DNA of 64,000 bases from Verrucomicrobiota bacterium (GTDB lineage Bacteria; Verrucomicrobiota; Verrucomicrobiia; Limisphaerales; Palsa-1400), in the NCBI GenBank assembly GCA_049510745.1, contig JBEKYR010000023.1, forward strand, positions 1 to 64,000, read 5' to 3'. The position numbers were made by a program, and so were the translations under genes. The notes beneath the pieces were generated by a model. It did not search any database. It saw only the letters and a program-made list of their open reading frames with translations, and was not told the origin of the DNA. Positions 47,607 through 63,991 of this stretch are shown here, piece by piece (position 1 is the stretch's first letter; the number at the start of each line of letters is the position of its first letter).

Positions 47607-48356
47607 CTACCGCCCGCCCCGGTTGTTGGCCACTTGCTGGCGAAGCTCTTCGACTTGTCGCTCCAGATCGCTCACGTCTCGCTTTTGCGCCGCCGAGGCG
47701 TGAATGTCCGCGGCCAACCCAATGAACTCGTTCATCAAATCGCGCAATTCCTGCGCGTTGTCTTGTCCGCCCTGGAAATGGCGGCGGCCGGCGTCCAGGG
47801 CGGCCCGTGCGCTGTCAATGTCGATGCCCATCTCGGTTCCCGGCGCATTGGCCCAAGCAGGTTGCGCGTCCGTGTCGCGGACCTGCTCTCGCTGTTGCGG
47901 CGCGGCGGTGCCGGTCTCGCTGGTTCGGCGAAACTTCTGGCGCCGAACATTCTCCAGTGCCGCCGATTTTTCCCTTTCAACATTGATATTGCCCGGGAGT
48001 TTCTTCAACTCCGCCTCCGGCGCATGGGCCGCCGCCTTCAAGCTCTCCATCGTTTCCCTCATCGCCTCCTGGAATTTCGAGAGAACGAGGATGACGCCGC
48101 CAAGGGTCGCGGTGACGCCATCGGCAAAAAACCGGGCCATTTGTCCCACGCCAGGGCTGGCCCCTCCGCGAGCCTGAACGGCGGCGTGGGCTTCGTGGGC
48201 GCCCTCGCCGCCCTGCTTGGCTTCTTCTCTGGCGCTGGCCGTGGTGGCATCGCCCGGGGCGTTGGTTTTGCCGATGTCTTTTCCCGGTTGCCCGGCCAAC
48301 TGTGGCGCGCCCTGCAACTGCATCGGCGTGGTTATCTTGACTTCAAAATCTGGCAT
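47607..48356 (-). CDS. Short tape-measure-like protein (possibly degenerate)
   Basis: Ala/Gln-rich helical 249-aa protein with a central hydrophobic stretch; last gene of the operon. Confidence 0.45.
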   Translation of the reverse strand: MPDFEVKITTPMQLQGAPQLAGQPGKDIGKTNAPGDATTASAREEAKQGGEGAHEAHAAVQARGGASPGVGQMARFFADGVTATLGGVILVLSKFQEAMRETMESLKAAAHAPEAELKKLPGNINVEREKSAALENVRRQKFRRTSETGTAAPQQREQVRDTDAQPAWANAPGTEMGIDIDSARAALDAGRRHFQGGQDNAQELRDLMNEFIGLAADIHASAAQKRDVSDLERQVEELRQQVANNRGGR

Positions 48357-48361
48357 AAGAA

Positions 48362-48400
48362 GAAATAGTTGAGGATTGAATCAGTGAATGGGTGAATGGG
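48362..48400. repeat. AATCAGTGAA element E1 (half element)
   Basis: aaatagttgaggattgaatcagtgaatgggtgaatg. Confidence 0.75.
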
Positions 48401-48599
48401 CGCGCTCGGCCTGCCAGCAGGGGCGGAATTGGAGTTGAACTCTCCCGTCGTATTCGCGCCGGAGGGCGGCGTGGGCTTCTTCGGTGAATTCGAGCCAGCC
48501 GCCGCCGGCCCAGCGCCCGCGGGCCAGGCAGGCTTCCACGTAGCCGGGCTTTCGCTCGGATTCGATCTGCAATAGGTGCTCGATGTGGGTGCGTCTCAC
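48381..48599 (-). CDS. Small phage hypothetical protein
   Basis: GTG overlaps the upstream TGA; ERKPGYVEACLARG...AHAALRREY. Confidence 0.6.
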   Translation of the reverse strand: MRRTHIEHLLQIESERKPGYVEACLARGRWAGGGWLEFTEEAHAALRREYDGRVQLQFRPCWQAERAHSPIH

Positions 48600-49393
48600 G
48601 GGGGATCGGAGTAGTTGTTCGTCGAGCCGCTGACGGCGCATTGGACGGTGTCGTCCCAGTCGCTGTCGAAGATGACGGTGACGCCGGTTCCGCAAATGGT
48701 GCTGGCCATCGTGGTGGCGAAGTCGTCGAGCAAGGCGGAGATGTCTGAGCCGTCGCCGGCGTTGCGCATGGGGACCCAGAGGCCGCGCAGGATGCCGGCT
48801 TTGCAGATGCCGCCGCAGGGTTGGATGATTTCGCCGTCCATTGGCTGATGGATGATTTGCTGGAGGCACGGACCGGAGGCGCTGCCTATGCAATGGAGGG
48901 GGAACGTGCCCCAGCAGCCTTCCATTGCGACGATCCAGTTGGCGTTGCGAGGCTCGCAGTTGCCGGCCTGCGGGCAGGGATCGCCGCCGTAGCAGGGGCC
49001 GTCCGGGTCGCCGCTCCAGTCGCCGTAGGCGTGGATTTTGACGGCGACGACGTTGCAGGGACCGGTGATGAGCCAATCGACGATGCCCATTGTGCCGTCC
49101 GGGGAAAACCAGGAATTGTTGCAGGAGTAATAGCCGAGGCCGGCGAAGGGGGCGCTGACGCTCGTGGGGGAGCCGGAAGTGTCGGTGAAGGTGGCGGTGA
49201 TGGTGTCGCCCCAGGGGATGGTGGACATGTCGAAGGCGTTGCCCCATGCGATTTCTTTGGCGTAGGTGTCAGACGGATTGTTCAGGCCAGTTCCGTAGGG
49301 GACAATAGAGAGGGTCCGGGTCTGGAAAAGATTGGGGGCGCCGGGGAAGCCGGGGTAAACGTAGCGGTTAAAGATGTTCTGAATAGTTGGCAC
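48596..49393 (-). CDS. Cys-rich putative tail/virion protein
   Basis: 265-aa ORF in the operon with many Cys and Gly. Confidence 0.65.
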   Translation of the reverse strand: MPTIQNIFNRYVYPGFPGAPNLFQTRTLSIVPYGTGLNNPSDTYAKEIAWGNAFDMSTIPWGDTITATFTDTSGSPTSVSAPFAGLGYYSCNNSWFSPDGTMGIVDWLITGPCNVVAVKIHAYGDWSGDPDGPCYGGDPCPQAGNCEPRNANWIVAMEGCWGTFPLHCIGSASGPCLQQIIHQPMDGEIIQPCGGICKAGILRGLWVPMRNAGDGSDISALLDDFATTMASTICGTGVTVIFDSDWDDTVQCAVSGSTNNYSDPP

Positions 49394-49402
49394 GATCAGG
49401 GC

Positions 49403-49545
49403 AAAATAGTTGAGGTTTGAACCGGAAGTAAATTAGTGAAGTTTGAATGAGTGAATGCCATGAATGCTGAATTCAACAATTCACTGATTCTCACTTCACT
49501 GATTGTTTTCAGTTCACTGATTCTCACTTCACTGATTGTCTTCAT
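49403..49545. repeat. AATCAGTGAA/TTCACTGATT palindromic element E2
   Basis: Inverted arms; 49418-49543 differs from 57295-57420 at 8 of 126 positions (manual). Confidence 0.92.
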
Positions 49546-49997
49546 GCGATGCTTGTCGTGTAGAATTCCGAGCAGACGATGAGGCGATAGCCGGGGGTCA
49601 GGACGCCGTCCACGATCTGGCAGGAATCGATTTCGCGCAGGGTGATTTTGTGGGTTTTGCCGTTCAACATGCCGATGGAAATGGTGATGCTGCCTTTGAG
49701 TGTGCCGCCGGCGCCATCCTGGAGGTGGATGGTGGCGCCGGCGGGAGCGCCTTTGACTTCGGGATCGGAAGAATCGTTGCCGTAAAAGGGCTGGCCGCTG
49801 GGGCGCAGATCGAGCGTGATGCCGGGGAAGGCGGCGTTGGTGGCGGTGTAGGCGCTGGAGTAGGTGAGCGAGTCGCCGAGGTTGGTGTGGAAGATTTCGA
49901 CGGCGGGAACGCGGGCGCCGGCGCTGGGGCCGCGCTGGGCGACGTTGGCGGGGGTGTCAACTGCGATGTTTTGGCCGGGGCCGGTGTTGGGTGACAT
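49542..49997 (-). CDS. Putative tail protein
   Basis: MSPNTG... with C-terminal ITLREIDSC...LIVCSEFY. Confidence 0.6.
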   Translation of the reverse strand: MSPNTGPGQNIAVDTPANVAQRGPSAGARVPAVEIFHTNLGDSLTYSSAYTATNAAFPGITLDLRPSGQPFYGNDSSDPEVKGAPAGATIHLQDGAGGTLKGSITISIGMLNGKTHKITLREIDSCQIVDGVLTPGYRLIVCSEFYTTSIA

Positions 49998-50000
49998 AAG

Positions 50001-50092
50001 ACAATCAGTGAAGTTTGAATCAGTGAATGGATGAATTGGGGAGGGGGCTTCTGACTGCCCCATTCATCAATTCACTGATTCTTCTATTCATA
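50001..50092. repeat. Palindromic element E3
   Basis: aatcagtgaa x2 ... ttcactgatt. Confidence 0.9.
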
Positions 50093-50095
50093 ATT

Positions 50096-51133
50096 TCAGA
50101 TCAGATAGTACCATCTGGGGCCGCGGTTGGCGCGGAGTTGCTCGGCCAAATCCGGCGCGCCCAGGTGCGGGGGCGGCCCGAAGTTCAACGTCGTGCGCCC
50201 GGCGAGCAGGTCGTAGGTGACGTTTTGAATGCACGCGGCCATTGTGGTCCATTCCGCATTGGCGCTGTTGATGATGTTGAGGTTGTTTCCCAACGGGCAG
50301 AGGTCGGTGACTTCGGCTTCTTGCAAGCTGACGCTGCCCTCGTATTGCGGGGCTTTCTCGATATTGTAGATGAAGCCGGCCAGGCCGTAGGGGACCACTT
50401 CGGCGGCGGCGGCTTGGGCGTAGGTGCCGGCGGCAAGCTGGCAAAGAGTACAGCGGGCGTGTTTTTCGTGGAAGGCGACGCTGCCTTTGGTGAGGGCGCC
50501 GGCGGGAGTTTGAGCGTTTTCGGTGTAGGCGAAAGAACCGATGATGGTGGCTTGTTTGGCGAGTGGGTTGCCGCTGGTGATCGTGTTGGCCAGCCAGGTC
50601 GGGATGTGGGGATCGAGGAGGAAATAGCCGTATTGGCCGGCGCTGCTGCCAATCTCCGAAGTGATGTCCGCGCCCGTGTCGTCAAGGACTTTGAAGCTGG
50701 AGCCGGTGTAGGTGGCCAGGCTCGACACGTTTTGGAATTCGGGCCAGAGCGCCTGGCACATGGCGAGCGTCGCGCCGGAGAGCGTGCCGGTGGACAGGCC
50801 GATGGCCTGCGAGGTGACGTTGACGGCGAGCGTATTGACGCCCTCGAAGTCGAGGGTGGCCATTTTCGCGCCGAAAGTGCGGCCGTTGGTCTGGAGCGTG
50901 GTTTGAGTGCCGCTGTCAAGATAAGTGCTGGGCGCGGAGATGAAAGTGGCAATGTTGCAGAGCGCGCCGGTGGCGCCGACGCCTTCCCGCGTGACGCCGG
51001 CGATGGTGGTGGCCACGTCGTTGATGACCTGGACGTAAAGGTTGTTGTTGTATTTCGACGTGACCCGGTATTTGAGGTGGACGCCCGGGGGAATGAGGTC
51101 GTCGCGGCGCTTGATTTTTAAGTCAAAAATCAT
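50096..51133 (-). CDS. Putative tail hub/baseplate protein, C-terminal part
   Basis: YEGSVSL...IQNVTYDLLAGRTTLNFGPPPHL; start at MIFDLK after the repeat. Confidence 0.65.
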   Translation of the reverse strand: MIFDLKIKRRDDLIPPGVHLKYRVTSKYNNNLYVQVINDVATTIAGVTREGVGATGALCNIATFISAPSTYLDSGTQTTLQTNGRTFGAKMATLDFEGVNTLAVNVTSQAIGLSTGTLSGATLAMCQALWPEFQNVSSLATYTGSSFKVLDDTGADITSEIGSSAGQYGYFLLDPHIPTWLANTITSGNPLAKQATIIGSFAYTENAQTPAGALTKGSVAFHEKHARCTLCQLAAGTYAQAAAAEVVPYGLAGFIYNIEKAPQYEGSVSLQEAEVTDLCPLGNNLNIINSANAEWTTMAACIQNVTYDLLAGRTTLNFGPPPHLGAPDLAEQLRANRGPRWYYLI

Positions 51134-51136
51134 AAG

Positions 51137-51279
51137 GCAATCAGTGAAGTCTGAATCAGTGAACTGGAAACAATCAGTGAAGTCTGAATGAGTGAATTGA
51201 TGAAGGGGGCAGTCAGCGCGCTGCGCGCGATCCGGCATTCATGGCATTCACTGATTCTGACTTCATTAATTGGGTTCAT
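51137..51279. repeat. Palindromic element E4
   Basis: aatcagtgaa x3 ... ttcactgatt; long arm is the reverse complement of the E9 long arm. Confidence 0.92.
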
Positions 51280-51284
51280 GCGGA

Positions 51285-52193
51285 TCAGGTGGCGCTCACG
51301 TTCACGCTGGGCAGTTGGTCGCGCGTGGTCACTTTGAACGTCGGGGGCGTTGTGGTGTAGTCGAACCAGGCGACGGTGCTTCCCACGTAGCCGAGCCATT
51401 TGAACATGTAGCGCAGGGCTTCGGCGCACGTAACATCATTGACGGCGTCGAGCGGGGCGCGCAACAGCGTGCGGGCGTCGGCTGTGCCGCTGGATTGGCC
51501 GCTGGCGGCGTAGCCGGCGATGTAATCCGGGATCAGGCAGTTGGGGCCGGGCGCGAGGAGGAGATCGTAGTTGACGCCATCGACGGCGTTGGTCAGGCCG
51601 TCGAATTGAAGTTGCGGGCTGCCATAGGCGGCGGTGGTTTGGGCGATGACATAGGCGACGATTTCCTTCACTTGCTGCGAAATGGTCATCAGCGTGGTGG
51701 CGGCCACGCCGGGGCAGACGGCCCCCGGCGTCGTGTTGGCATAGACGCTCAGGCCCAGGATGACGGCGCTGCGCCAATCGGCCACAAGCTGGCTGCCGTT
51801 CCACGTCCACCAGAGCTTTTGGAAGACGAGGCGCTCGAAGAAAAATTCCCACGGTCCGGCGAATTTGTAATCGAATTTTTCAAGTTGGGCGCTGCCGCTG
51901 CGGAGGTTGGCGACGCGGTAGCCGACGAAGAAGATCGTGCCGCCGGAGAAGGAGGTGAAGCCGCTGCCGGGCAAACCGCCAGGCAATGAGACGCCCCCGG
52001 CGGCCGTGCGGTTGCGGCGGATGGTGATTTTCGTGCCATAGGGGAAAGGGTCGGCGGCGTCGGCCGGGGTAATGAGGGAAAAGGCGAGATTGTCGCCGGC
52101 CTGGTTGTTGGCCTGGCGGCGGGCGGACTCAATGCGGGCGTCTGCGAAGGTCATTTCGGATCCGCCAGCAGCTTGGATGGTCCAATAGGTCAT
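51285..52193 (-). CDS. Putative tail hub/baseplate protein, N-terminal part
   Basis: IFFVGY, YKFAGPWEFFFERLVFQ, WFDYTTTPPTF; operon position. Confidence 0.65.
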   Translation of the reverse strand: MTYWTIQAAGGSEMTFADARIESARRQANNQAGDNLAFSLITPADAADPFPYGTKITIRRNRTAAGGVSLPGGLPGSGFTSFSGGTIFFVGYRVANLRSGSAQLEKFDYKFAGPWEFFFERLVFQKLWWTWNGSQLVADWRSAVILGLSVYANTTPGAVCPGVAATTLMTISQQVKEIVAYVIAQTTAAYGSPQLQFDGLTNAVDGVNYDLLLAPGPNCLIPDYIAGYAASGQSSGTADARTLLRAPLDAVNDVTCAEALRYMFKWLGYVGSTVAWFDYTTTPPTFKVTTRDQLPSVNVSAT

Positions 52194-52195
52194 GG

Positions 52196-52290
52196 AAAAA
52201 TAGTTGAAGTCTGAATCAGTGAATCAGTGAATTCTGAATTCATGGCATTCACTGATTCACTGATTGTGACTTCGCTAAATGGGGTTCATG
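52196..52290. repeat. Palindromic element E5
   Basis: tgaatcagtgaatcagtgaa ... ttcactgattcactgatt. Confidence 0.9.
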
Positions 52291-52292
52291 GT

Positions 52293-54776
52293 TCAATAAA
52301 TGGTTCCGGTGAAATAGTGGCCGAAGCTGCCGCTGCCGCTCATGGTGACTTGCAGATCAATCCAGGCGTTCGTCAACCATAAGAGTGCCGCGCCGTTGGT
52401 GACTCCTGATTGTCCGGCATAGGCGGCCAGCGCGCTGTTCGCCATCGCACCGGTGCCGTTGCCGTTTGTTCGCAAGGTGAAAACAAGATTGCTTCCCGCT
52501 AAAAGACTCGTGCCTTCCGCCAAATTGAACGTCGAAACACAAAAAATCCCGGGAAGAAACACCGACACGTTCGTTTCAGCCGCCTGGCCGTTCGCAACAG
52601 GGCCAGTCGGCGGATACCAGCGCGTCGTTGAGGTCTGAGTTTGCCCAAAGACACCAAAATGAAGGATCGTCGAGAAGCTGGTGTTGGTCAGGCCGTTGAT
52701 GACGTTGGTCCAGCCGTTCGGGCCGCCGATGTTGGTGGCGGTGGCGCTGAGATCAACATGGGTGGCGTTTGTCAAGACGATGTTGGTGCCGTTGTTGGCC
52801 GTGTTGGTGCTGCCGGTGGCGCCAACAGTCCAGGTCAGGCCGCCGTTGGTCACCGTGATGAAACCGAGGCTGGCCGTGCCCCCGTTGGTATCGACTATAT
52901 TCAGGTTGTTGGTCGGAAACTGAACCGAAGCGGCGGGGATCGTGCCGCTCAGGTTGGCGGCGTTGAGACTGGTCAGGCCGGAGCCGGAGCCGTTGAAGCT
53001 AACGGCGCTCAGATCGCCGATACCGTCCGATGAAATCTTGTAAAGGCTCCCGCTCCAATCGGCCTGAAAGCCGCCGTCCATTTGCATCGGAGCGCCGGTG
53101 TGCAGGCTCGCACCGCCGCCGTTGTTGTCAAGAGTAACCGTGGTGCCGGCGGATTTGAGGACCAGGGCGCTGTTCTGCTCGTAGCCGTTGGAGATGACGA
53201 TGTTGGTGAAGCTGTTTGGCCCGGTAAAAGCGTTCGTTCCCGCCAGACTGGCAAAGCCGTTGGTTTGCAGCGCGTAATTTGTGCCGCGAATTTCCGTCAG
53301 CAAATTCGTGCCGTCCGTCACGATCCGCAGGTTGCATCCGGCCGGGAGCGAAAAGTTGGTCGTGCCGTTCATCCCCTGGAAGACCGCGTGATCCGCCGTG
53401 CAAATCTGCACGCTATGAGGCCCGTTGGTATCGACCCGGAATATGTTCCAATCCAGCGTGCAGTAGGCCGGGCCTTTGCTCGCGCCGTCCCGCACGAATG
53501 TCCAGGCCGGCTTGGTCTGCGTCGTCTCCCCGAAATGCCCCAGCGCCGGCAGCGTGATCTGGATGTTGTTGGCGATGGCATCGGCGAAAATGTAGCGGTC
53601 CGCTATATCGGCGGTGTAATTGGCCGCGATGTTGGTGAAGCCCCACCACTGTTTGGCTGCCTGGATGCTGCCCATCGGGCCGGCGACGACGGAATACCAG
53701 TTGCTCGTGCCCCAGACCACGAATTGATCGTTGGAAAAATTGATCCCGGCCGGGGAGTAAATATCCATCGTTTCCTGACTGCTGGTTTGCGGCGGAGCCG
53801 TGATTTGCACAAAGCCGTTTGTCATAACCAGAAGCTGGCCGGCTCCGTTTAAATAGACCGGCAGATAAAAGATCGCGCCGTTGGTAAAGTAGGCCGTTCC
53901 TTGCACATCGACATTGCCATTGTTGTCCAGCGTGATTCCGGCGTTGAACGAGTTTGCATTCACGTCGGAGGAGTATTGGTTTAGCAGCGTCACCGGCGCG
54001 TCGTTCGTCAGCGTCAAGCCGACCGCCCCGCCGCTGAGGGTGACACCGGCCGCCATGATATTCGTGGTGTTGACGGTGCCATTGACCGTTAGATTGCTGC
54101 CAACGGTAATGGTGCCGTTGGAATTGATGTCCAGGGCGAGAAAGGTGTTGGTGGAGTAGATGCGCCAATCGCGGCTGGAAACCGTTTCGTTCCAATCGAC
54201 GCCGAAGGGGAACTCAAAGTTGCGGATGACGAACTTCTGGCCGGGCATTTTGTAATCGTAGGCCAGATAAGCGTTGCCGGCGTTGGTGAAGGCAATGAGG
54301 ACGCAGTTGGTCCAATAATCATTGCCGGTATTGTGGCCCGTGGTCCCCGTGATATTGAGGCCGTCCAGGAAGGTCAGCGGGTTCAGGTCATTATTGGTGA
54401 CGACGCTGTTGGTCAGGCTGATCTGGCCGAGGGAATTGGTCGCAACGAAATTGGGATCGTAACTGGCCGGCCCGCCGCCTCCCCCGCCGCCGCCGGATGC
54501 GGCCACAGCCTGGTTCAGAAGATTGCTGTTGGCGGCGAAAAAGTTTGTCTCATTGGGCGGCAGCGTGTTGTTCGTATTGACCACGAACACTTTGTTGGTG
54601 CTGACACTGGCGCCGGGAGACGGCAGGGCAATCAGTGAAGTTAGAATTAGTGAAGTCAGAATCAGTGAATTAGTGAATAGGGACAATGCGAAACTCATCA
54701 ATTCACTGATTCTCACTTCATTGATTGTTTCTCGTTCACTGTTTCTCAATTCGCTGATTTTTTTCATAATTTTCAT
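52293..54776 (-). CDS. Large Thr/Asn/Gly-rich fibre- or adhesin-like protein with a repeat-encoded signal peptide
   Basis: 827 aa, FTGPNSFTN and FNGSGSGLTSLNAANLSGT fibre-like motifs; N-terminus overlaps element E6. Confidence 0.75.
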   Translation of the reverse strand: MKIMKKISELRNSERETINEVRISELMSFALSLFTNSLILTSLILTSLIALPSPGASVSTNKVFVVNTNNTLPPNETNFFAANSNLLNQAVAASGGGGGGGGPASYDPNFVATNSLGQISLTNSVVTNNDLNPLTFLDGLNITGTTGHNTGNDYWTNCVLIAFTNAGNAYLAYDYKMPGQKFVIRNFEFPFGVDWNETVSSRDWRIYSTNTFLALDINSNGTITVGSNLTVNGTVNTTNIMAAGVTLSGGAVGLTLTNDAPVTLLNQYSSDVNANSFNAGITLDNNGNVDVQGTAYFTNGAIFYLPVYLNGAGQLLVMTNGFVQITAPPQTSSQETMDIYSPAGINFSNDQFVVWGTSNWYSVVAGPMGSIQAAKQWWGFTNIAANYTADIADRYIFADAIANNIQITLPALGHFGETTQTKPAWTFVRDGASKGPAYCTLDWNIFRVDTNGPHSVQICTADHAVFQGMNGTTNFSLPAGCNLRIVTDGTNLLTEIRGTNYALQTNGFASLAGTNAFTGPNSFTNIVISNGYEQNSALVLKSAGTTVTLDNNGGGASLHTGAPMQMDGGFQADWSGSLYKISSDGIGDLSAVSFNGSGSGLTSLNAANLSGTIPAASVQFPTNNLNIVDTNGGTASLGFITVTNGGLTWTVGATGSTNTANNGTNIVLTNATHVDLSATATNIGGPNGWTNVINGLTNTSFSTILHFGVFGQTQTSTTRWYPPTGPVANGQAAETNVSVFLPGIFCVSTFNLAEGTSLLAGSNLVFTLRTNGNGTGAMANSALAAYAGQSGVTNGAALLWLTNAWIDLQVTMSGSGSFGHYFTGTIY
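54630..54759. repeat. Palindromic element E6 (in frame in the CDS N-terminus)
   Basis: Encodes ISELRNSERETINEVRISELMSFALSLFTNSLILTSLILTSLI. Confidence 0.9.
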
Positions 54777-54777
54777 C

Positions 54778-55422
54778 TTAGTAGCCTTGGTCAGACAGTT
54801 GCGCCGTAAGCACCCCGCCGTCGTTCAGTACGGCCAGCGTGTGATAAAGGCCCGTCGTTGTGTCCAGCAATTGCGGCACGATCTGCCCGGCGACGCTGTA
54901 AAGGCGGAACCCCGCCAAAGGCGGCGCGCTGGCCGTGCTGATCGGGCCGTCTTTGACCATGATCGGACCGTTCAAAAGCGTGATCGTCTTGGGCGTGCCA
55001 TCCGTGGTCTGCGCGGTGATGCGCAGCCAATACCCGATGGTCGCCTGGCCACTGAGGCTGACGCCCGTCTGGCTGTTGGGGAAGACAAACGCCGCGTGAT
55101 AGAAGGGCGCGCTATTGTTGGTCCACTCGCTTTGCGTGAGCGAAAGATTCATGTTCGCCGCCAGGACCGTGCCACTCATCATCGGCGCATTGCTGTCGTT
55201 TTCCGCCGCAAACAGTTGGCAGGTGACGGACGCGATCCCGCCCGCCCCGGCCGAAGCCAGGCCGGTGAGCAGGCTGCCGCCCTGCCCGATGCCGATGTCG
55301 ATTTCAACGTCGTCTCCGCGAAAGAAATAGGGCGCGGCGCTGCGATTGAGATCGAGCAAGTTTTGCGGCGCCGCCAAGTCGCAGAACAAGCGGATGGGCA
55401 GGGGGGTAAGGGGAGTGCTCAT
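54778..55422 (-). CDS. Putative baseplate upper/fibre-attachment (BppU-like) protein
   Basis: FFRGDDVEIDIGI...YWLRITA...ITLLNG; start at MSTPL. Confidence 0.55.
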   Translation of the reverse strand: MSTPLTPLPIRLFCDLAAPQNLLDLNRSAAPYFFRGDDVEIDIGIGQGGSLLTGLASAGAGGIASVTCQLFAAENDSNAPMMSGTVLAANMNLSLTQSEWTNNSAPFYHAAFVFPNSQTGVSLSGQATIGYWLRITAQTTDGTPKTITLLNGPIMVKDGPISTASAPPLAGFRLYSVAGQIVPQLLDTTTGLYHTLAVLNDGGVLTAQLSDQGY

Positions 55423-55429
55423 AGCAACA

Positions 55430-55565
55430 TAATCAGTGAAGGTTGAATTAGTGAACCGGCAATAATCAGTGAAGTGAGAATCAGTGAATTGATGAATGGG
55501 GCAGTCAGTTTCCATTCGGCATTCACTGATTCCCTGATTCTTCTATTCATTGATTGGGTTCTCAT
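55430..55565. repeat. Palindromic element E7
   Basis: aatcagtgaa x3 ... ttcactgatt. Confidence 0.9.
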
Positions 55566-56026
55566 GGGCTGTTTTGCCACGGCCCGTTGCCGCAGATGGC
55601 GTAGGTGACATTGCAACTCAGCCCCTGGTGCTGGGCGCACTCGACGCTTTCGACCACCGCATTGGGCAGGTAGCGGACGATCACCCCGGTCGTCGTCTGG
55701 TTTTCCAGCTTGACCCCGCCCTGGGCCGGGACGTTGTCCGGGTGCCCGGCGATAAAGGCCAGGCAATCTTCAACCGCGCTGAAAGAGCGTTGCACGGTGA
55801 ATGAAAACCGGTTCTCCAGATTGTAGCGCGGCACGGCCAGCGCATAGGCGGCGCGGAAAAGATGGGTCTTTTGCACCAGCCGCTTTTGCCGGTTGACAAA
55901 CCCCTCCTTGTTTTGCCCGCCCGACCCGGACGCCAATTGCGGATTGGGCAAAACGACCCGCACCGAATCATCCGCCAGGATGAACGGCGTCGCGCCGGCG
56001 CCCGATGGGGTGAGGGTGATCTTCAC
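55562..56026 (-). CDS. Putative distal-tail-like protein
   Basis: 154-aa beta-rich ORF after the tail tube gene. Confidence 0.5.
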   Translation of the reverse strand: MKITLTPSGAGATPFILADDSVRVVLPNPQLASGSGGQNKEGFVNRQKRLVQKTHLFRAAYALAVPRYNLENRFSFTVQRSFSAVEDCLAFIAGHPDNVPAQGGVKLENQTTTGVIVRYLPNAVVESVECAQHQGLSCNVTYAICGNGPWQNSP

Positions 56027-56031
56027 AAGCT

Positions 56032-56137
56032 AATAGTTGAATGAGTGAATCAGAGAATCAGTGAATGCCGAATTCATCAATTCACTGATTCAAACTTCAC
56101 TGATTATTTCCGGTTCACTGATTCTGACTTCGTTAAT
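56032..56137. repeat. Palindromic element E8 (overlaps the 3' end of the 68-aa ORF)
   Basis: aatcagtgaa ... ttcactgatt x3. Confidence 0.9.
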
Positions 56138-56310
56138 TGGCTTTCCACGTAGGTCTTGTGCAGTTCCACCTGATGGATGGCCGTGGCCAGCGCCCCCTTG
56201 GCCACGCTCAGCCAGCTTGGGTTATGTCCGTCTTTTTCGGACTGCGCCTTCAGGGCGGCGACTTCGTCGTGGATCAATTTGATCCCGCTGATGATTTCGC
56301 ATGTTGTCAT
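56104..56310 (-). CDS. Small hypothetical protein
   Basis: 68-aa ORF in the operon; C-terminus is repeat-derived. Confidence 0.55.
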   Translation of the reverse strand: MTTCEIISGIKLIHDEVAALKAQSEKDGHNPSWLSVAKGALATAIHQVELHKTYVESQLTKSESVNRK

Positions 56311-56343
56311 ATGCTTTCTGCTTTCTGCTTTCAGTTTTTGTTT

Positions 56344-57276
56344 TTACGCCAGAGCCAGCGCGGGGGTGGCCGGCGCCCCGCCGGCGGCGATGGGCAGCGT
56401 GCTGACCCAGCCCAGTTCCCCCAGCCGCAACGGTTTCCCGCCGAAGACATACCCCGCCGTCTTGAGCGCCGCGTTGCCGATCGTCACCGTCATATTGCTG
56501 CTGCCGGTGATGACCAGGTTGGCGGAATTCGTTGACAACCGGTAGCCCCCGGCCGCGCCGGTTCCCTGCGCGTAAAGCGCGGCGTCAATCTGCGCCATCG
56601 TCGGCCCGAGCGGTTTGCACTTGGCCATCGCCCGGTAGCTGACCAGTTTGAAAGCCCGCGTCCGGCCCTGGATCGTGATCGCTTCCAGCTTCAACTCGTG
56701 CGAGAGGGTCCACTTCTCTTGCGCCTGAAAACTACTGAAGCCCGCCACGCTTCCCCAAGCCGCGGTAAACTCCTGCCGTCCCAGCACCGCCGTCCCTGGC
56801 ACAGCCGGGTTGGCATAACTCTGCCCCGTCGCCAGCGTGTAATAGGCGTTGGCGTGGCTCGGGTCCTCGGTATTGGCGATCACTCCCCAAATCTCCATCC
56901 GCCCAAGCACCGGGCCATCGACGCCCAATTCCAAATCGGGCATCTTTCCGATCAGCGCGCTGCTCAACGTCACCACGTCGCCGTTGTTGGAATTCCACGC
57001 GCAGGGAACATCGCTCGAACCGGGATATGTCGTGCCAATCGCCGCCGCCAGGTAAGGAAACAGCGTCGCGATCTGCGCCGTGTCATAAAACAGCGGCCGC
57101 CCGCTCGCCTTGACGATCAGGTCCTTTTCGATCTCGTCCGCCTCCCCATAGAGCGCAGTGGAAATCACATCCGTGACCAGCGCCGTCGCCACCGAAGAGT
57201 CTTCGGCGAACTGGATGTTTTTGGAGTTAAAGGCCGCGTAAGCCGGCCCGCCCGTGAGTGTGGATCGTGTTACCAT
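56344..57276 (-). CDS. Putative major tail tube protein
   Basis: About 310 aa, beta-rich, directly after the neck genes. Confidence 0.6.
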   Translation of the reverse strand: MVTRSTLTGGPAYAAFNSKNIQFAEDSSVATALVTDVISTALYGEADEIEKDLIVKASGRPLFYDTAQIATLFPYLAAAIGTTYPGSSDVPCAWNSNNGDVVTLSSALIGKMPDLELGVDGPVLGRMEIWGVIANTEDPSHANAYYTLATGQSYANPAVPGTAVLGRQEFTAAWGSVAGFSSFQAQEKWTLSHELKLEAITIQGRTRAFKLVSYRAMAKCKPLGPTMAQIDAALYAQGTGAAGGYRLSTNSANLVITGSSNMTVTIGNAALKTAGYVFGGKPLRLGELGWVSTLPIAAGGAPATPALALA

Positions 57277-57287
57277 AAAACAATAAT

Positions 57288-57428
57288 TCAAGTCTGAACC
57301 GGAAGAGAATCAGTGAAGTCTGAATGAGTGAGTGCCATGAATGCTGAATTCAACAATTCACTGATTCTCACTTCACTGATTGTTTCCAGTTCACTGATTC
57401 TCGCTTCACTGATTTTCTTCGGGTTCAT
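57288..57428. repeat. Palindromic element E9
   Basis: Near-identical to E2. Confidence 0.92.
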
Positions 57429-57436
57429 CGGGTTTG

Positions 57437-58156
57437 TTATGTGACTGTGAAAGTATCGACCATGCTGCCCTGCAAGGTCCCATTGTAAGCGGCCACGCGC
57501 ACCACGGTCCCGCCCGCAACGGGAAAGGGAACCGAATAGAGGACGGCATTCGGGTTTCCCGCCCCGGGAAAACTGCCGTCCGTTGTGTAATAAATCGTGC
57601 TGCCGCCGCCGGGTTGTTGATCGGCCAGCGTCACGGTTCCGGCCGCGGCGGATGCCGCGGGCGCCAGGGTCCGCGTCAACGCTGTCAAGACGAACGTCGC
57701 CTGCATCGTCACTTGCATCGCCACAAACGGCGTCTTCCCGCCCGTCTCCATCCGTTCGTAAAACGGCGAGCCGGCGTAGAACCCCTGCAGCGGGCCTCCG
57801 AGGAAAAACAATTGGAACGTCTGCGCCAGGTTGACGGCGATCTGCTCCAGGCTCAACCCCGTGCCCCGCGCCCCGTTGTTGACCGTCTCCTGCGTCTTGA
57901 CGATGAATCTCTGTTCCAGCGTGCAGACCGGCCCGGGTGTGTTTGGCTCGGCGCTCTTGAGGGTGGGGAAAAAAACTTCAATGGTGGCGCCGCCTTTGCC
58001 ATTGCGCCCGGCCAGCCCGGCCAGCGCCTGGTTCACTTCCGTGTCCAGCCGCTTCTCGCGCACTTTGAATATGGCGATGTTTTGAAAATACGGCTCGGAC
58101 AGCAGCTTGTAGTAAACGTCCGGCTGCACGCTTTCGATTTGCGCCGCTAAACTCAT
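57437..58156 (-). CDS. Putative neck/tail-terminator protein with a C-terminal FN3-associated (chitobiase C-terminal-like) Ig domain
   Basis: TIYYTTDGSFP...LYSVPF...VRVAAY motif. Confidence 0.65.
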   Translation of the reverse strand: MSLAAQIESVQPDVYYKLLSEPYFQNIAIFKVREKRLDTEVNQALAGLAGRNGKGGATIEVFFPTLKSAEPNTPGPVCTLEQRFIVKTQETVNNGARGTGLSLEQIAVNLAQTFQLFFLGGPLQGFYAGSPFYERMETGGKTPFVAMQVTMQATFVLTALTRTLAPAASAAAGTVTLADQQPGGGSTIYYTTDGSFPGAGNPNAVLYSVPFPVAGGTVVRVAAYNGTLQGSMVDTFTVT

Positions 58157-58599
58157 GTTTCCCCCAGCGTGTCAAAGTCGTGGGTCCGCACCTCGTGGCC
58201 CCGCCTCACCGTTTCCACCCGGAAGCTCGGACCGGTCACATTCTGCGCCGCGGCCGGAATCTCCACTTTTTCCTTCCCGTCCCGGATTTTCTCCATCCGC
58301 TTCTGCGCCGTTTCATATTGGGCCTTTCTGAATTCGCTTTGCAGGTCCGTCTTCGGCAGGCTGCAAAACCACCGCCAGCGCACGATCGCTATCGCATCCC
58401 CGCGAATCTGGTCCGGGACCGTGCCCGATGCGCCGATCTGATTTCCTCCCACCAGTATCTGCGCCTGCAATTCGGCCAGGACCGTGGCCAGGATCGCGCT
58501 CAGTATCGTGTCGCTTCCCTCGATGGTGTTCAGGGCGGTGACCTCATCCGGGAGAATCTCGGCGGTCACATCGGTCGTTGCAAGCGTGTTCCAAGGCAT
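58153..58599 (-). CDS. Mu gp36/DUF1320-like head-tail adaptor
   Basis: MPW...TVPDQI...AIVRWR...RKAQYETAQKRMEKIRDG pattern; follows the capsid genes. Confidence 0.65.
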   Translation of the reverse strand: MPWNTLATTDVTAEILPDEVTALNTIEGSDTILSAILATVLAELQAQILVGGNQIGASGTVPDQIRGDAIAIVRWRWFCSLPKTDLQSEFRKAQYETAQKRMEKIRDGKEKVEIPAAAQNVTGPSFRVETVRRGHEVRTHDFDTLGET

Positions 58600-58605
58600 G
58601 GGAAG

Positions 58606-58697
58606 AAATAGTTGAAGTTGGAATGAGTGAATTAGTGAATGGAAAAGTCAGTGGCTTCGCCATTCAACAATTCACTGATTCTTTTATTCATTTGATT
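58606..58697. repeat. Palindromic element E10
   Basis: aaatagttgaag...gagtgaattagtgaa...ttcactgatt. Confidence 0.85.
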
Positions 58698-58755
58698 CTT
58701 TTGTGTTGCGCCGGCGTGCCAGGACTGTGGAACGCGCCGGCGCCGTTTCAGTCGC

Positions 58756-59322
58756 CTACGGCGTGACGGTTTGGAGGAGCGTCACCCAGATGTTTGAGGC
58801 GGCGCCCCCGGTCGTGGCGCTTCCGCCATTGACGATGCTGTAGCCGAGACTTGTCGCCGGCTCCCATTGGCTTGCCAGCAGGTTGGTGCTCGCCGTCTGG
58901 TTGGTCGTGTAGCCAATCGTCCAGACCAACACCGGCGTTTGGGTGAAGTTTGTCCCATACCGCCCGTTGAGGGAACTGGCGTTGCCTCCCCCGGTGTCGT
59001 AGGCCGGATAAACGGTGATGACAAGGTTGCTGGAAGCCGCAAATTTGTTCGTATTGACAATTTGCGCGACCAGCCCGATGGCGTGGGTGCCGCTGAACGG
59101 AATGAACGTGTTGGTGAAGCAATACACGTTGGTGTAGCCGGGCCCCGCCGTCGGCAGCGCCGCGTTGGTCAGGAGAGCCTGGCCGTTGCTCACTACCACG
59201 CTGCTCAGCAGGGTGTATTGCCGCGGCAGGACCTGGGTGGTCGCCTGTCCGAAGAGAAGGCTGAAGGATGAAGGCAGAAGGATGAAGACCGCCAGCATCG
59301 CTGTTTTGATGGAGTTTCTCAT
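58756..59322 (-). CDS. Secreted Thr/Asn-rich protein inside the virion operon
   Basis: Signal peptide MRNSIKTAMLAVFILLPSSFSLLFGQ, partly encoded by a GAAGGAT-type heptamer tract. Confidence 0.75.
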   Translation of the reverse strand: MRNSIKTAMLAVFILLPSSFSLLFGQATTQVLPRQYTLLSSVVVSNGQALLTNAALPTAGPGYTNVYCFTNTFIPFSGTHAIGLVAQIVNTNKFAASSNLVITVYPAYDTGGGNASSLNGRYGTNFTQTPVLVWTIGYTTNQTASTNLLASQWEPATSLGYSIVNGGSATTGGAASNIWVTLLQTVTP

Positions 59323-59379
59323 AGGTGTTTCGATTTATCGTGTTGACTTCTTACTTCTTAATTCTTGCTTCCGCCTTTC

Positions 59380-60438
59380 CTAATTGATTTGGACCTGCTG
59401 AATCCCCGTCGTGTGCTGCACGTGCAGGTATTCGTAGTTCTCCACCGTCAAGGCGATGAGCTTGACTCCAATGTCAGTAATATAGACGGCGTATTCCCCC
59501 CCGCCGTAGGCCGCGTTGGAGACGTGCCGCACCACGTTGCTCGCGTCCATCGGGCCGTCCGCCTCGATGGTCGTGAACAGCAGCACGTTGCTGCCGATGA
59601 TCTCCTGCTTGGTCGTCCCGGCCGATTGCTGATACCGCTCCGCATTGAACAGGCAGCGGTCCACGCCGATGGCCGTGGCCACCTGCTCCTCGGTGAATTG
59701 GCCCGCCCGCGCCAGCGCGCCGGCGTTCAATTGCGACTCATACGCGTTCTGCCGCTTGAGCGCCGCCTGGTCGCCATAGACCGCCACCAACGGGTAAAAT
59801 CCCGTCGTGTTGGCCAGGTTGATGATGTCCTGTTTCAATTCCAGGTCCGGATTGCTCCCCGCGTCCCACGTCGTGCTCGAGACAATCGCGCTGGCCTCGA
59901 TCAGCGAAACCGCTTCCAGCACCGTCGCCCGCATCATCAGGTCGATCAGCCATTTGGTATGCACTTGCTGCCACTCGGGCTTGTCTTTGAGCTGGTCCCG
60001 GTCAAGAAGAACCGTCAGTCCCCGGTTGGGCACTTGCAGGTCCACCTTGCTCGCCGCCCTCTGCCGCACCCGCATGAAGTCGGCCAGGACGCCGCGCTTG
60101 ACCCTCGTGGCATCCACCGTCTGCCACGGTTCGTTCTCGTCATAGATCGTCAGCCGGATGATCCGGCTGTTGCTCGGCCGCGGCGGCGCCAGCAGGTCGC
60201 GCAACTGCCGCAGCCGGTTGCCCACCATGCCGTCGTAGCTGATGGCAAAAGTGGTCAATTCCTCGATGTATTCCGACTGCCGCAAAAGCGAGTCGTTCGC
60301 CAGGCAGACCTGGCCGTGATGCGCCCCGAGGTTGTTGGAGGCGATGGCGTTGGGGGCAAAATCGTTGCCCAGGGCAACGCCCAGGTTTTCAAGGGCGGCC
60401 TGCCGGGCCGCGTTGGAAAGGGCAATGGGATCTTTCAT
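59380..60438 (-). CDS. Putative major capsid protein
   Basis: 352 aa after the protease and decoration genes; EELTTFAI...NRGLTVLLD...SNPDLEL. Confidence 0.75.
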   Translation of the reverse strand: MKDPIALSNAARQAALENLGVALGNDFAPNAIASNNLGAHHGQVCLANDSLLRQSEYIEELTTFAISYDGMVGNRLRQLRDLLAPPRPSNSRIIRLTIYDENEPWQTVDATRVKRGVLADFMRVRQRAASKVDLQVPNRGLTVLLDRDQLKDKPEWQQVHTKWLIDLMMRATVLEAVSLIEASAIVSSTTWDAGSNPDLELKQDIINLANTTGFYPLVAVYGDQAALKRQNAYESQLNAGALARAGQFTEEQVATAIGVDRCLFNAERYQQSAGTTKQEIIGSNVLLFTTIEADGPMDASNVVRHVSNAAYGGGEYAVYITDIGVKLIALTVENYEYLHVQHTTGIQQVQIN

Positions 60439-60470
60439 AATTTCAAATTTCTCTTCTGGAAGTTTATTGT

Positions 60471-60989
60471 TTACGCCGGTGTGCCGTAGCTCAGCGTGCC
60501 GCCCGTCACCGTTACCGCGTAAGGGGCGACCGCAAGAAACGTGATTTCCTGCCCGGCCGCCGCCACCGTTTTGGTCGCCCGCCCGATCACCCAATAGGTG
60601 CCGTTGGCCGCCGCCGTCACATCCTGCACCTGCCCGCTGGCGGCGGCCCCGACTAGGTGATCGATCGCAATGGCTCCGGCGCTCATGCCCAGTTGGGTCC
60701 CCTTGATCGCGCCGAATCGTTCCACGTCCAGAAAATCGCCGCTCTGATACGGCGCGTCCGGCGACGTCCCCAGCGGAAAGCTCGCCGCGTCCCCCACCGC
60801 TGCGTAGTATTGACCCGATCCCCGCTTGTAGATCAGGTACCGGCCCGCAACGGGAAGCGTTGCCGCGGGATCGATCTGCAGCGTTTCCCGCCCGCTATCG
60901 AACAGTCCCCCCAACTCGTTGGCCAGGGCGGTTGCCCCCGCCGGGACGGGATGGAACAGACGACAAATGTATTGAAGCATTTTTTTCAT
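60471..60989 (-). CDS. Putative head decoration/capsid cement protein
   Basis: AGAIAIDHLV.AAASGQV...WVIGRA...AAAGQEI pattern. Confidence 0.7.
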   Translation of the reverse strand: MKKMLQYICRLFHPVPAGATALANELGGLFDSGRETLQIDPAATLPVAGRYLIYKRGSGQYYAAVGDAASFPLGTSPDAPYQSGDFLDVERFGAIKGTQLGMSAGAIAIDHLVGAAASGQVQDVTAAANGTYWVIGRATKTVAAAGQEITFLAVAPYAVTVTGGTLSYGTPA

Positions 60990-61056
60990 AATTTTCTTTT
61001 CTTTGCGCTCTTCAGGTCCCCCGCGGCTTTGGCGGCGGCCGAGGCGCTTTCTGTGG

Positions 61057-61287: not shown

Positions 61288-61317
61288 GATTTTCACTTTG
61301 GGGTTCGTTGTTTGGAG

Positions 61318-62481
61318 TTACAGTTGACTGCGAACTTTGAGCTTTTCGGCCAGACCCGGCTCCTTTTTCATGACCGCGTGATGCGCCTTGATCGGGTCCG
61401 TTTCGCTCGTTTCTTTCATGTGCTTTTCCACCGCCGCGCAGTATTCCTCGCGGGGATCGCCCCCGGCCCCGTGGTTGGCGAGTATCTTCCCGCTCTCCGC
61501 GTTGCCGGCCGTTTTGAACTTCGTGGCCGACCCGAGCAGCGCCGCGGCGTCCCGCTCGAAGTCCGCCGCGTTTGCCAGCCCCTGGATTCTTCCCGCCCGC
61601 TCCGCCACCGTCAGCTTGCCGCGCGCGATGGCCAGGTCCGCCACCGCCGCGGCCCGCCCTTCGCGCTCGGCCGCAACCCGGCATTTGAGGGCGGCGTTCT
61701 CGTTCTCGAGGACCACTCCCTTGGATTTCAATTCGGCGTTCGCCCCGTCGAGGGCGGTATTCTCGTTGCCCAGGGCCGCCACTTCGCCGGCTTTGGCGTC
61801 GTGGAACCTTTGCAGGGCCTCGAGAACCTGCGCTTCGCTCGGCGCTTCGGCCTCGGCCACGGCCACGCCGTTGGCCAGCAGCCAGCCTGTGATCAGTTTC
61901 ATATCTGGTTCTTTCGTTGCTTCTTTTCTCTCGGCGCCCCGGGCGTTCGCCAGGGATTCCACGCCGGAAATGTTCGGATGCGGCGTCAGGCCCGCCGATA
62001 AAAGCTTGAACGGCCGCGCCACCACCGCGTCTCCCCGCCGCCCCACCGGCATCACATACCACAGCGCGCTGGGATACTTGTGCCCCTGCTTCTCCACCGC
62101 GTCCGCCCCGGCTGGTGTCAATACAAAATGCCCCTCCAAACCCCGCCGGCTTTTGCGCACCCGGTCGATCGCCCCGATGATCTCCTTCCGCTCCGCCGTC
62201 CCTCCTGTCCCCGCCTCGTAATCCCGCAAGTCCGGATGCCCCTTATAGACCGGGATGCCGACCAGGGCGCGCCGGAGCCGCCGGAAGAGCGAGTTCTCGC
62301 GGGACAAAAGCTGGTCCGCCGACTCGTTGTCCAGCACCTGGATGAATTTCTCCTCGCGCAGCGCCCCGTTCTTCTTGACCAAACGGGTTTTCGGATGCTC
62401 GCCGAACGGCGCGATCAAGGCCCAGCCCTCCTCGTCCAGCGCCGCGTCGTTGCCTAATATGAGATCGATCTCGGTGTTCAT
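61318..62481 (-). CDS. Mu gpI-like prohead protease/scaffold
   Basis: IAPFGEH, PVYKGHPD, YPSALW, LSAGLTPHPNI, followed by a coiled-coil scaffold region. Confidence 0.8.
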   Translation of the reverse strand: MNTEIDLILGNDAALDEEGWALIAPFGEHPKTRLVKKNGALREEKFIQVLDNESADQLLSRENSLFRRLRRALVGIPVYKGHPDLRDYEAGTGGTAERKEIIGAIDRVRKSRRGLEGHFVLTPAGADAVEKQGHKYPSALWYVMPVGRRGDAVVARPFKLLSAGLTPHPNISGVESLANARGAERKEATKEPDMKLITGWLLANGVAVAEAEAPSEAQVLEALQRFHDAKAGEVAALGNENTALDGANAELKSKGVVLENENAALKCRVAAEREGRAAAVADLAIARGKLTVAERAGRIQGLANAADFERDAAALLGSATKFKTAGNAESGKILANHGAGGDPREEYCAAVEKHMKETSETDPIKAHHAVMKKEPGLAEKLKVRSQL

Positions 62482-62491
62482 GGAAAAAACC

Positions 62492-63991
62492 TCAATTCTC
62501 CCCCTTGCCGGTTGCCGCGGCGGACCAGAAATTCGCCGCATCCACCTGCGCGTCCGGCAGATTCGGACTGGCGCTTTGGGGCATGGAGCGGGGATCGGCG
62601 CCGGAACCTATCGGGGTGGCGTCGGTGGTCACGGCGCGCTGGGCGGCGGGATCGGAAGAAATGGGGGAATCAGTGAGTTTTGAATCAGTGGATTGTTGAG
62701 GTGAAAATGGCGGCTTCGCCGGGTTCTTCCCATTCACTGATTCTCCATTCGCTGATTCACTGATTGCGGTGACGGGGGCTACCAGGCACGGCTCGCCGGC
62801 CTGGGGGGCTGTCCAGCGGAATCGCTTGTAAGCTTCCGCCAGGCTGATGCGCAATCCCATCGGCGCCAGCGTTTGCACGCTTCGCAGGTCCATCTCGGAC
62901 GTGTCGTCCAGCGGCGGCACCACCGCCATCCAGGCGCGCGGCTCACGGTCAAACAAAAATCGGATCACCGGCCGGTCCAGCCGTTCGTTCAGGTACCCCG
63001 TCGCCCAGGCCGCGTCCCGCGCCAGAAAAATTCCCGACTCCTCCTTTTGCACGCTCGCCCCCACTGCCGCCCGGCCCTGGCCCGGCTCCGTTGCCCGGCT
63101 CCCCGTGGCCAGATCGATCCCCCGGTAACACTTGGCGTAAAGCCGGTTCACGTGCTCCACCAGCGGCTCGAACGGCAACGCGCTCTTCGCCGGCGTCTCC
63201 AGGAATTTCAGCGTCACCCCGCGGTTGTGCAGCACCACCCCGTCGTTGGCCATCCGCTCCAACGCCTCCCGCGCCTCCTCCCACGCCGGATCGTTCCTTT
63301 GCGCGTCCGTTATCCCCTCCAGAAATCCGCTCCCGTACCGGCTGCAAAACACCATCCAGTCGCGCAAGGGAAAGTTTTTCAGGACATAGGCCATGCTCAA
63401 CGGCCTCATCCAGCCGCTTCCCACGCACGTGAGCCATTCCCCTTGGAGACAAGGCTGGCCGTAAACGTCAAATATATGTTGAAGATAACCCAGGTAGCCC
63501 CGCCGGCTCTCAAAAAACCACACCGGCGTGTGCCGCAATTCCGCCGTCGCTTCCCGCGCCGCCCCGTTGTCTATCCGCAGCAGAATCTCATGCACGCTGT
63601 AATAATACGAATGGGCGCTGGCCATCTGATGAAGCAATTCGCTCACCCCGCCCGCCACGTCCTGGTCCAGCGCCCGCGTCACCCGCAGGTTCCGGTAAAA
63701 ATAGCTCAGCGCCGCCGCGTGCTCGTCCCCTTCCGCGCTGCCGTCGGATACGATCTTCCAGTCCAGCCCGGCCAGGTCCCCCGCCCGCTTGTCCGCGTTG
63801 ACCGCCAACTCCCCGTCCCGCTCCATCATGATCTCCCATATCTTCCCGATCACCCTCAGCTCCCCGATCCGAAACGCGTTCAGGTTCGCCGCCACCCACT
63901 TCGTGTTCAATTCCGGCATCGGGCTGTAGCGCAGCCGGATCGCCCACTCGATCCGCGCCTGATTAAACTGGGACTGCCCGGTCGGGTTCAT
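62492..63991 (-). CDS. Mu gp29-like portal protein (DUF935-like)
   Basis: MMERDGEL...KR...LDWKI, YSVHEI, DWMVFCSRYG, LNERLDRPVIRFLF. Confidence 0.8.
   Translation of the reverse strand: MNPTGQSQFNQARIEWAIRLRYSPMPELNTKWVAANLNAFRIGELRVIGKIWEIMMERDGELAVNADKRAGDLAGLDWKIVSDGSAEGDEHAAALSYFYRNLRVTRALDQDVAGGVSELLHQMASAHSYYYSVHEILLRIDNGAAREATAELRHTPVWFFESRRGYLGYLQHIFDVYGQPCLQGEWLTCVGSGWMRPLSMAYVLKNFPLRDWMVFCSRYGSGFLEGITDAQRNDPAWEEAREALERMANDGVVLHNRGVTLKFLETPAKSALPFEPLVEHVNRLYAKCYRGIDLATGSRATEPGQGRAAVGASVQKEESGIFLARDAAWATGYLNERLDRPVIRFLFDREPRAWMAVVPPLDDTSEMDLRSVQTLAPMGLRISLAEAYKRFRWTAPQAGEPCLVAPVTAISESANGESVNGKNPAKPPFSPQQSTDSKLTDSPISSDPAAQRAVTTDATPIGSGADPRSMPQSASPNLPDAQVDAANFWSAAATGKGEN
62667..62765. 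repeat. Palindromic element E11 (in frame in the portal C-terminus)
   Basis: Encodes ISESANGESVNG...STDSKLTDS. Confidence 0.85.

Follow-up and report, generated by a model that had tools for sequence, protein, structure and literature searches.

Junk reading frames through hairpin repeats as probable translational relays in a Mu-like head-tail cassette of a Verrucomicrobiota bacterium

Short repeats that meet reading frames are known from several bacteria. The palindromic RPE elements of Rickettsia are translated in frame, cyanobacterial STRR are heptamer repeats comparable to the TAACTGA heptamers introduced below, and MIRU insertion reportedly duplicates a DTGA target (Supply 1997). MIRUs consist of direct repeats in tandem and lack obvious palindromes (PMC5056196), and their internal open reading frame (ORF) couples to the target gene at a −4 spacing, which is proposed to render the insertion harmless (PMC12548453, PMC5056196); a 2025 review words this coupling idea as 'may have been exploited' and 'likely' (PMC12548453). 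In integrons, the short ORFs of attC sites and ORF-11 of attI1 provide a reading frame through an intergenic hairpin that restores downstream translation by termination-reinitiation (PMC8876359). TAACTGA heptamers precede start codons in Beggiatoaceae, Cyanobacteria and Bacteroidetes, where these direct repeats are viewed as protein-binding sites and no hairpin is predicted (PMC4679880); background on coupling at ATGA overlaps is given in PMC6728339. Here we analyzed 64,000 nucleotides (nt) of a peat bacterium of the Verrucomicrobiota (assembly GCA_049510745.1, contig JBEKYR010000023.1, positions 1 to 64,000; the whole stretch is termed the window), in which hairpin-forming inverted repeats crossed by mini-ORFs occupy the gene junctions of a Mu-like head-tail cassette and split its putative baseplate-hub gene.

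The original prediction, made from the letters of this stretch, held that ribosomes pass these hairpins by termination-reinitiation through the mini-ORFs. Its observation was confirmed, and its interpretation is partly supported. We propose, with a probability of about 0.7, that a selective filter is at work: hairpins at the coupled junctions of an operon poor in Shine-Dalgarno (SD) sites survive more often with a junk frame that ferries ribosomes across by termination-reinitiation. Such a filter, acting on repeats once they are inserted, agrees better with the evidence than does a relay designed into the operon.

Mini-ORFs and hairpin elements in the window

The elements are AT-rich, consist of 7–8-nt units with an 8–9-nt core and its reverse complement, and number about 11 copies in the 16 kb of the cassette. 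Nine copies folded as RNA gave long hairpins (z −2.0 to −7.7). Nine element-bearing junctions lie between 48356 and 58756; elements and relay ORFs of this region are listed below.

58600..58700, minus strand: element before the gp36-like gene; its 19-codon ORF (58632-58691) is coupled at neither end
57288..57428, minus strand: relay ORF of 46 codons, beginning 8 nt past a stop and ending 11 nt before the homologous ATG 57276
56030..56137, minus strand: element whose 5' arm is the end of a 68-amino-acid (aa) gene, 56104-56310
55419..55565, minus strand: relay ORF of 48 codons with ATGA at each end and a 5-nt direct repeat, ATGAG
52190..52289, minus strand: element of 8-nt periodicity in which the frame is broken on the 5' side; its last 17 codons (52190-52243) alone are coupled, by ATGA to 52193
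51130..51279, minus strand: relay ORF of 49 codons in a hub-splitting element, beginning 5 nt past a stop and with an ATGA overlap downstream
49998..50095, minus strand: hub-splitting element; its 23-codon ORF (50020-50091) begins 4 nt past a stop and ends 22 nt before the next ATG
49396..49545, minus strand: relay ORF of 49 codons through a hairpin, with an ATGA overlap with the stop of 49542-49997 and ending 2 nt before GTG 49393
48357..48399, minus strand: 3' half of an element, ending directly on ATG 48356; no relay

All eight mini-ORFs described earlier translate as written, and the spacings of the long ones hold. The claim that mini-ORFs abut both the upstream stop and the downstream start stands for the four long ones and fails for the four short ones, which are coupled at one end or neither. 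Among the latter, 58632-58691 lies 64 and 32 nt from its neighbours; 56030-56077 (15 codons) begins 26 nt past the upstream stop and ends 3 nt before GTG 56026; and 52190-52243 begins 49 nt past the upstream stop, an ATG 3 nt past that stop yielding just four codons. Within the hairpin of 49998..50095 there is an in-frame ATG at 50063. The TGA of 57288-57428 also overlaps an in-frame TTG at 57291, and at the 55422 junction six clusters of relatives show a plain ATGA overlap, that is, an empty site. The gene downstream of relay 49396-49545 (48596-49393) has a coding-like GC content at third codon positions of 0.84; no homolog was found in 21 loci, and its start thus lacks confirmation by homology. 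Pfam and PHROG gave no match for the four long mini-ORFs.

With a 12-nt 3' tolerance, set after the 11-nt gap had been seen, a full ATG bridge from stop to start occurs at four of the nine junctions, where 0.53 would be expected from dinucleotide shuffling (none of 2000 shuffles had four), and with a 6-nt tolerance at 3/9, a cut that carries no P value. The predicted scarcity of SD sites held. Scored as 5-mer SD words, they precede 6.9% of 947 genome starts (control window, 2.4%); among 233 cassette starts, 15 have one. A 16S 3' end, from which the host anti-SD would be read, was not found. The earlier caveat that repeat periods of 15 or 18 nt make open frames likely by chance in fact reverses, since core spacings are multiples of three in 21/27 cases in the cassette versus 12/91 elsewhere in the genome. 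The element family does occur out of frame, at 52289 in the window and in locus L106.

Contigs from other sequencing runs equal the window without differences (e.g., 51902-52483, 54263-55276, 56361-57383, and 50168-51182 plus 51154-51871). Because they agree across or into several elements, an assembly error is unlikely. Among the four DNA runs compared there were no strain variants inside elements, and the differences at 52234-52243 are probably due to a paralogous copy located at another genomic site. Separately, a GC-rich hairpin at 58700-58745, immediately behind the stop of 58756-59322, differs from the repeats in being conserved among relatives; it may be a processing or termination signal.

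Relay frames at homologous junctions

The comparative set comprised 126 loci, the named relatives being mostly Verrucomicrobiota records, with one weak viral match (L152) left out. These fell into 84 clusters at 95% identity, with 233 junctions at which both flanking genes were placed by homology. Relay tests used the 104 gaps of 45–240 nt, tube-junction gaps above 200 nt, which hold small genes, being excluded. A strict bridge begins −4 to +12 nt from the upstream stop and has a stop that overlaps the downstream start; a quick tree served for lineages.

Strict bridges were found in 34/104 gaps. Dinucleotide shuffling gave 13.2 ± 2.8 (23 at most among 300 shuffles), reversed sequence 11 and deletion of 1–2 nt 7. 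Restricting the start to ATG gave 22 against 7.0, 5 and 4.5, respectively, and dropping the window and five doubtful rows left 31/96 against 12.4 expected. Both the geometry and its enrichment are thus observed in relatives as well. Register tells the same story. Gaps from ATGA to NTGA are in register in 15 of 19 cases (p = 6e-5), 13 of those 15 being free of stops, whereas CTGA gaps, which offer no common start, are in register in 5/10 cases and open in none. After the drops, in-register gaps are open in 20/24 cases with an A/G/T-TGA upstream stop versus 0/5 with CTGA (p = 0.001). Moreover, 31 of 62 gaps are open in the frame running to the downstream ATGA, versus 13 and 11 in the other two frames and 20, 21 and 15 antisense; gaps discordant between frames favour the frame to the ATGA by 23:5 and 23:3.

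The relatives' hairpins at these junctions are unrelated to one another, falling into 76 gap families by shared 8-mers, 31 of which hold a relay. With one gap per family, 22–25 of 36 are in register (p ≤ 6e-4). Relays exceed expectation by more in strong hairpins (21/39 versus 6.3 expected) than in weak ones (12/44 versus 6.5). The expectation that frames would be conserved in homologous operons is therefore borne out, in that unrelated hairpins keep stop-to-start frames above the shuffle, reverse-strand, deletion and register controls. The encoded peptides share no sequence across families; because they are unrelated, it is translation that would matter, not the product. On the tree, relays are scattered among short and empty junctions, and sister lineages often show a plain ATGA overlap or a short gap at the same junctions.

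These data enable us to propose a putative course of events. Start codons, overlaps of stop and start, and loops within the cassette serve as landing sites for short inverted-repeat elements, as the empty sites of sister lineages show. Because SD sites are little used by the host, a long hairpin placed at a coupled junction would be expected to reduce the flow of ribosomes to the next gene. Statistically, inserts persist preferentially if a junk frame spans the upstream stop, the hairpin and a stop on or beside the next start. In that case, by analogy with established translational coupling, ribosomes that have terminated would reinitiate at the mini-ORF, open the hairpin as they move through it and then reinitiate at the following gene, and the relay peptides would be by-products. 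The relay would be one route of survival among others, the alternatives being in-frame translation within a protein or an unstructured A-rich leader.

Several results weigh against this proposal. The original prediction envisaged a relay along the whole operon, which does not hold: the relay is complete at 34 to 42 of the 104 homologous gaps and missing in full form from 62 to 70, as it is from five of the nine window junctions, and frame breakage is common. GTGA/TTGA gaps are in register in 12/24 cases (p = 0.07; 10 open), a weak excess. No clean relay accompanies the second hub split, 49998-50095. Where a relay exists, the downstream start is not predicted to be clearly less accessible (0.55 versus 0.60 without; p = 0.12). 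A genome-wide test on host genes, based on crude gene calls, found no excess of relays (ATGA 6/50 versus CTGA 11/77). Furthermore, a few of the downstream starts assigned by homology are doubtful, and the P values ignore the kinship of lineages and are optimistic even after collapsing. As to the insertion itself, direct repeats beyond ATGA are short (at most 8 nt), so that target duplication, like a mobilizing enzyme, is hypothetical.

The sparse relays and the negative host-gene test would suit a chance by-product, in which repeats of 15- or 18-nt period in tight AT-rich gaps give open frames while downstream genes start independently; indeed, gaps beginning with ATGA have a shuffle probability of 0.3–0.7 of a loose bridge. 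We regard this as unlikely, since the excess remains in the register test, the CTGA control, the three-frame comparison and the deletion control, all of which keep the natural sequence, and many relays pass through repeats of 7-nt period. About equally unlikely is a regulatory device, a hairpin plus mini-ORF retained to tune protein ratios, RNA processing or stability. The crowding of stable hairpins in the cassette would agree with such a role, whereas their sequence, length and even presence vary, the plain overlaps and short gaps of sister lineages included. Prediction of intrinsic terminators (GC-rich stem plus U run) placed none of 18 calls on an element, with 22.4 expected by chance, and an Rfam scan of the elements gave no match at gathering score.

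A split baseplate-hub gene

Two window elements are not intergenic in origin, because the gene they cut is a single ORF of about 800 codons in most relatives; the earlier view of the elements as intergenic must be corrected in this respect. The pieces are as follows.

51285..52193, minus strand: N-terminal hub piece, 302 aa, homologous to the fused ORF
50096..51133, minus strand: middle hub piece, 345 aa, homologous to the fused ORF
49542..49997, minus strand: C-terminal third hub piece, continuous with the preceding piece in 27/28 parsed clusters and split in the window only

Two fold leads, from low-confidence models (pLDDT, the predicted local confidence, 52), suggest that the fused form resembles the baseplate hubs Mu gp44, gp27 and VgrG-like proteins; an alignment of the fused hub matched nothing when compared with PHROG and with PDB sequences. 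The AlphaFold model of the hub is poor over residues 117–303 and 617–728, which reach or cover the split sites.

Of the 35 clusters parsed, seven have a split at the first hub site, and two of four further, unparsed clusters are full-length. The inserts are different repeats in different lineages. Each of the seven splits carries an ATG at its 3' edge, a position at which Met is mostly absent from fused homologs, and an ATG relay is present in six of the seven versus 1.5 expected. The splits do not form one clade, and one of them has a fused sister at 100% support (quick tree; L079 and L080 fused by label). The second site is split in the window only (1/28 parsed; three unparsed clusters read through). 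Downstream of the first-site split, the hub pieces stay open for 345–562 codons in all seven cases, and nonsynonymous differences per site (pN) are below synonymous ones (pS) in 21/21 pairs. This pN/pS pattern does not isolate the time after splitting, because the splits are not one clade; a single ancestral split, considered for this pattern, was rejected, as the splits are ungrouped in the tree. Under the proposed filter, the same termination-reinitiation route would let an insert cut the hub gene while all pieces still get made.

Recoding or RNA excision offers another path, with ribosomes hopping the hairpin, or the RNA losing it, so that the fused hub protein is restored. Removal of the insert does nearly restore the fused length (21–23 codons versus 22 between anchor motifs in several splits), and the element arms pair end to end. 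Against it stand the 3'-edge ATG of all the splits and the start-to-stop mini-ORF of six; matched take-off and landing codons were not seen by eye, and the true intergenic sites need no excision. We consider this explanation improbable, more so than either chance or regulation.

The cassette, the origin of the repeats and known systems

Pfam and PHROG searches placed the cassette among Mu-like head-tail modules. The capsid, tube and fibre labels of its genes rest on position only.

47607-63991, minus strand: Mu-like head-tail cassette; Pfam and PHROG identify the portal, I protease and gp36, whereas the hub label comes from fold leads only
62492..63991, minus strand: Mu-like portal (PF06074, phrog_113)
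61318..62502, minus strand: Mu I-like head maturation protease (PF10123, phrog_328), start not fixed
58153..58599, minus strand: Mu gp36-like head-tail adaptor (PF07030, phrog_195)
56344..57276, minus strand: conserved 310-aa gene, probably tail tube, labelled by position only
52293..54776, minus strand: 827-aa gene, tentatively fibre-like, 1 nt past the upstream stop; its N-terminus is an in-frame element copy, about 54631-54765

The 310-aa gene, which has no Pfam or PHROG match, and with it the cassette, is present in 21/31 family genomes, own included. Host genes adjoin the portal on its upstream side, no terminase or transposase lies beside the cassette, and the genome holds one Mu portal; four terminase-like genes lie on other contigs (G000 C8:64658, C10:75701, C22:41611, C70:14161), and other clades hold a terminase inside the cassette. 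The cassette may be a domesticated module resembling a gene transfer agent. The lack of an adjoining terminase and the doubly cut hub might alternatively speak for a cassette in decay, with the inserts as damage; another variant holds that the peptides work as small proteins. The long open hub pieces with pN below pS, and the spread of the cassette through the family, argue against decay, as does the lack of shared peptide sequence between lineages, or of a Pfam or PHROG family, against working small proteins. Of all the alternatives, we hold this pair to be the least probable.

Other features of the region are recorded here for completeness. A conserved operator-like palindrome lies just outside the window at about 64090-64105 of the contig (G000 C23; about 4090-4105 of L001), about 90–130 nt upstream of the portal ATG, and was seen by eye in 16 portal-bearing clusters. 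In one clade (L129, L133, L140, L063, L067, L069, L076), the tube gene is followed by a conserved small gene whose product, about 90 aa long, looks helix-turn-helix-like by eye. The genes 52293-54776 and 58756-59322 begin with hydrophobic, signal-peptide-like segments, partly encoded by repeat arms, which are unusual in virion proteins; similar starts occur among relatives. An Fn3-associated / chitobiase C-terminal domain (PF13287, PF13290) closes gene 57437-58156 of the head-tail region. In the relatives L029 (G029), L032 (G025), L038 (G013) and L045 (G022), apparent frameshifts, internal stops or insertions affect capsid, protease, tube or hub genes, due to either decay or assembly error.

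The window element is also translated in frame within proteins, namely in the portal tail (a degenerate copy, about 62669-62764), at the N-terminus of the fibre-like gene and in a variable loop of three terminases. After its TTPNG motif, this terminase loop takes unrelated repeats, mostly in frame (L153, L154, L155, L157-L186); three copies in the own genome carry the window element in frame, and two other loci are out of frame. As regards origin, we inspected six genes for four-helix-bundle proteins (PF05635) and four full GxxExxY genes (PF13366); judged by eye, most of them lie between inverted 7–8-mer arms. One of them, the four-helix-bundle gene L156:6403-6792 (G000 C53), is enclosed by both arms of the window element with the 5' arm duplicated, and is possibly a cargo-bearing form of it. 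Four copies of the element end 6–7 nt past a shared motif, directly on an ATG; like three window copies, the arm-flanked gene enclosed by the window element ends on this motif immediately before an ATG. ATGA or DTGA stands at both ends of 43 gaps, with a matching run of at most 8 nt. As to REP elements, which have a GTAG or CGTC tetranucleotide foot and a cognate RAYT gene, the genome contains seven Y1_Tnp matches. To judge from the arms, the cassette hairpins look like cargo-less forms of those around four-helix-bundle and GxxExxY genes, which would imply past mobility or expansion. A broader scenario is tentative and stands well below the survival filter: the 7–8-mer arms could be the ends of an uncharacterized class of mobile elements, whose empty forms spread via start codons in operons of bacteria without SD use, relay frames permitting repeated splits of a structural protein at one linker and yielding virion-like particles of coupled fragments.

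The cassette provides a natural experiment: its few junctions carry dozens of hairpins that are unrelated to one another, with empty sites alongside and a clear signal of selection on the frame rather than the peptide. It supports SD-free termination-reinitiation as a real constraint in operon evolution and shows a route to repeated gene fission. For annotation, it is a warning against taking such ORFs of 15–50 codons for small proteins and against assuming that a hub gene in three pieces must be a pseudogene. Literature searches, which covered few subscription journals, returned no description of these elements, relay frames or cassette.

Among the described systems, MIRUs come close in being dispersed short repeats at start codons with an internal ORF coupled to the target at −4. 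This coupling is seen in window ORFs 51130-51279 and 55419-55565 and in most strict relays of relatives, and the window family shares start-codon insertion with empty sites in relatives. Unlike MIRUs, described as one family in one orientation, the present elements are long inverted 7–8-mer repeats of dozens of unrelated families, carry the relay in part of their copies only, and are also inserted in frame and within genes. The host moreover belongs to Verrucomicrobiota, not mycobacteria. The window elements are not MIRUs, being palindromic, of many families and outside mycobacteria, a distinction drawn without sequence comparison. As at integron attC sites, an intergenic hairpin would block ribosomes and a short ORF restore downstream translation; here, in contrast, the junctions are conserved in a fixed phage-like operon with no cassette array. 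R/L boxes, extrahelical bases and a nearby integrase mark attC sites; boxes and an integrase were not seen here, no search having been aimed at them. The TAACTGA heptamers share 7-mers just upstream of starts, few SD sites in operons and stops in one orientation only, whereas hairpins and bridging ORFs are found here, the latter absent from the sections of PMC4679880 consulted. Like the RPE of Rickettsia, the window element is read in frame, as in three terminase genes, the portal and the N-terminus of the fibre-like gene; unlike RPE, in-frame insertion and relay ORF are alternative fates of one repeat. To these systems, the present analysis adds a statistical test of relay frames across many families of repeats, together with the repeated splitting of one gene.

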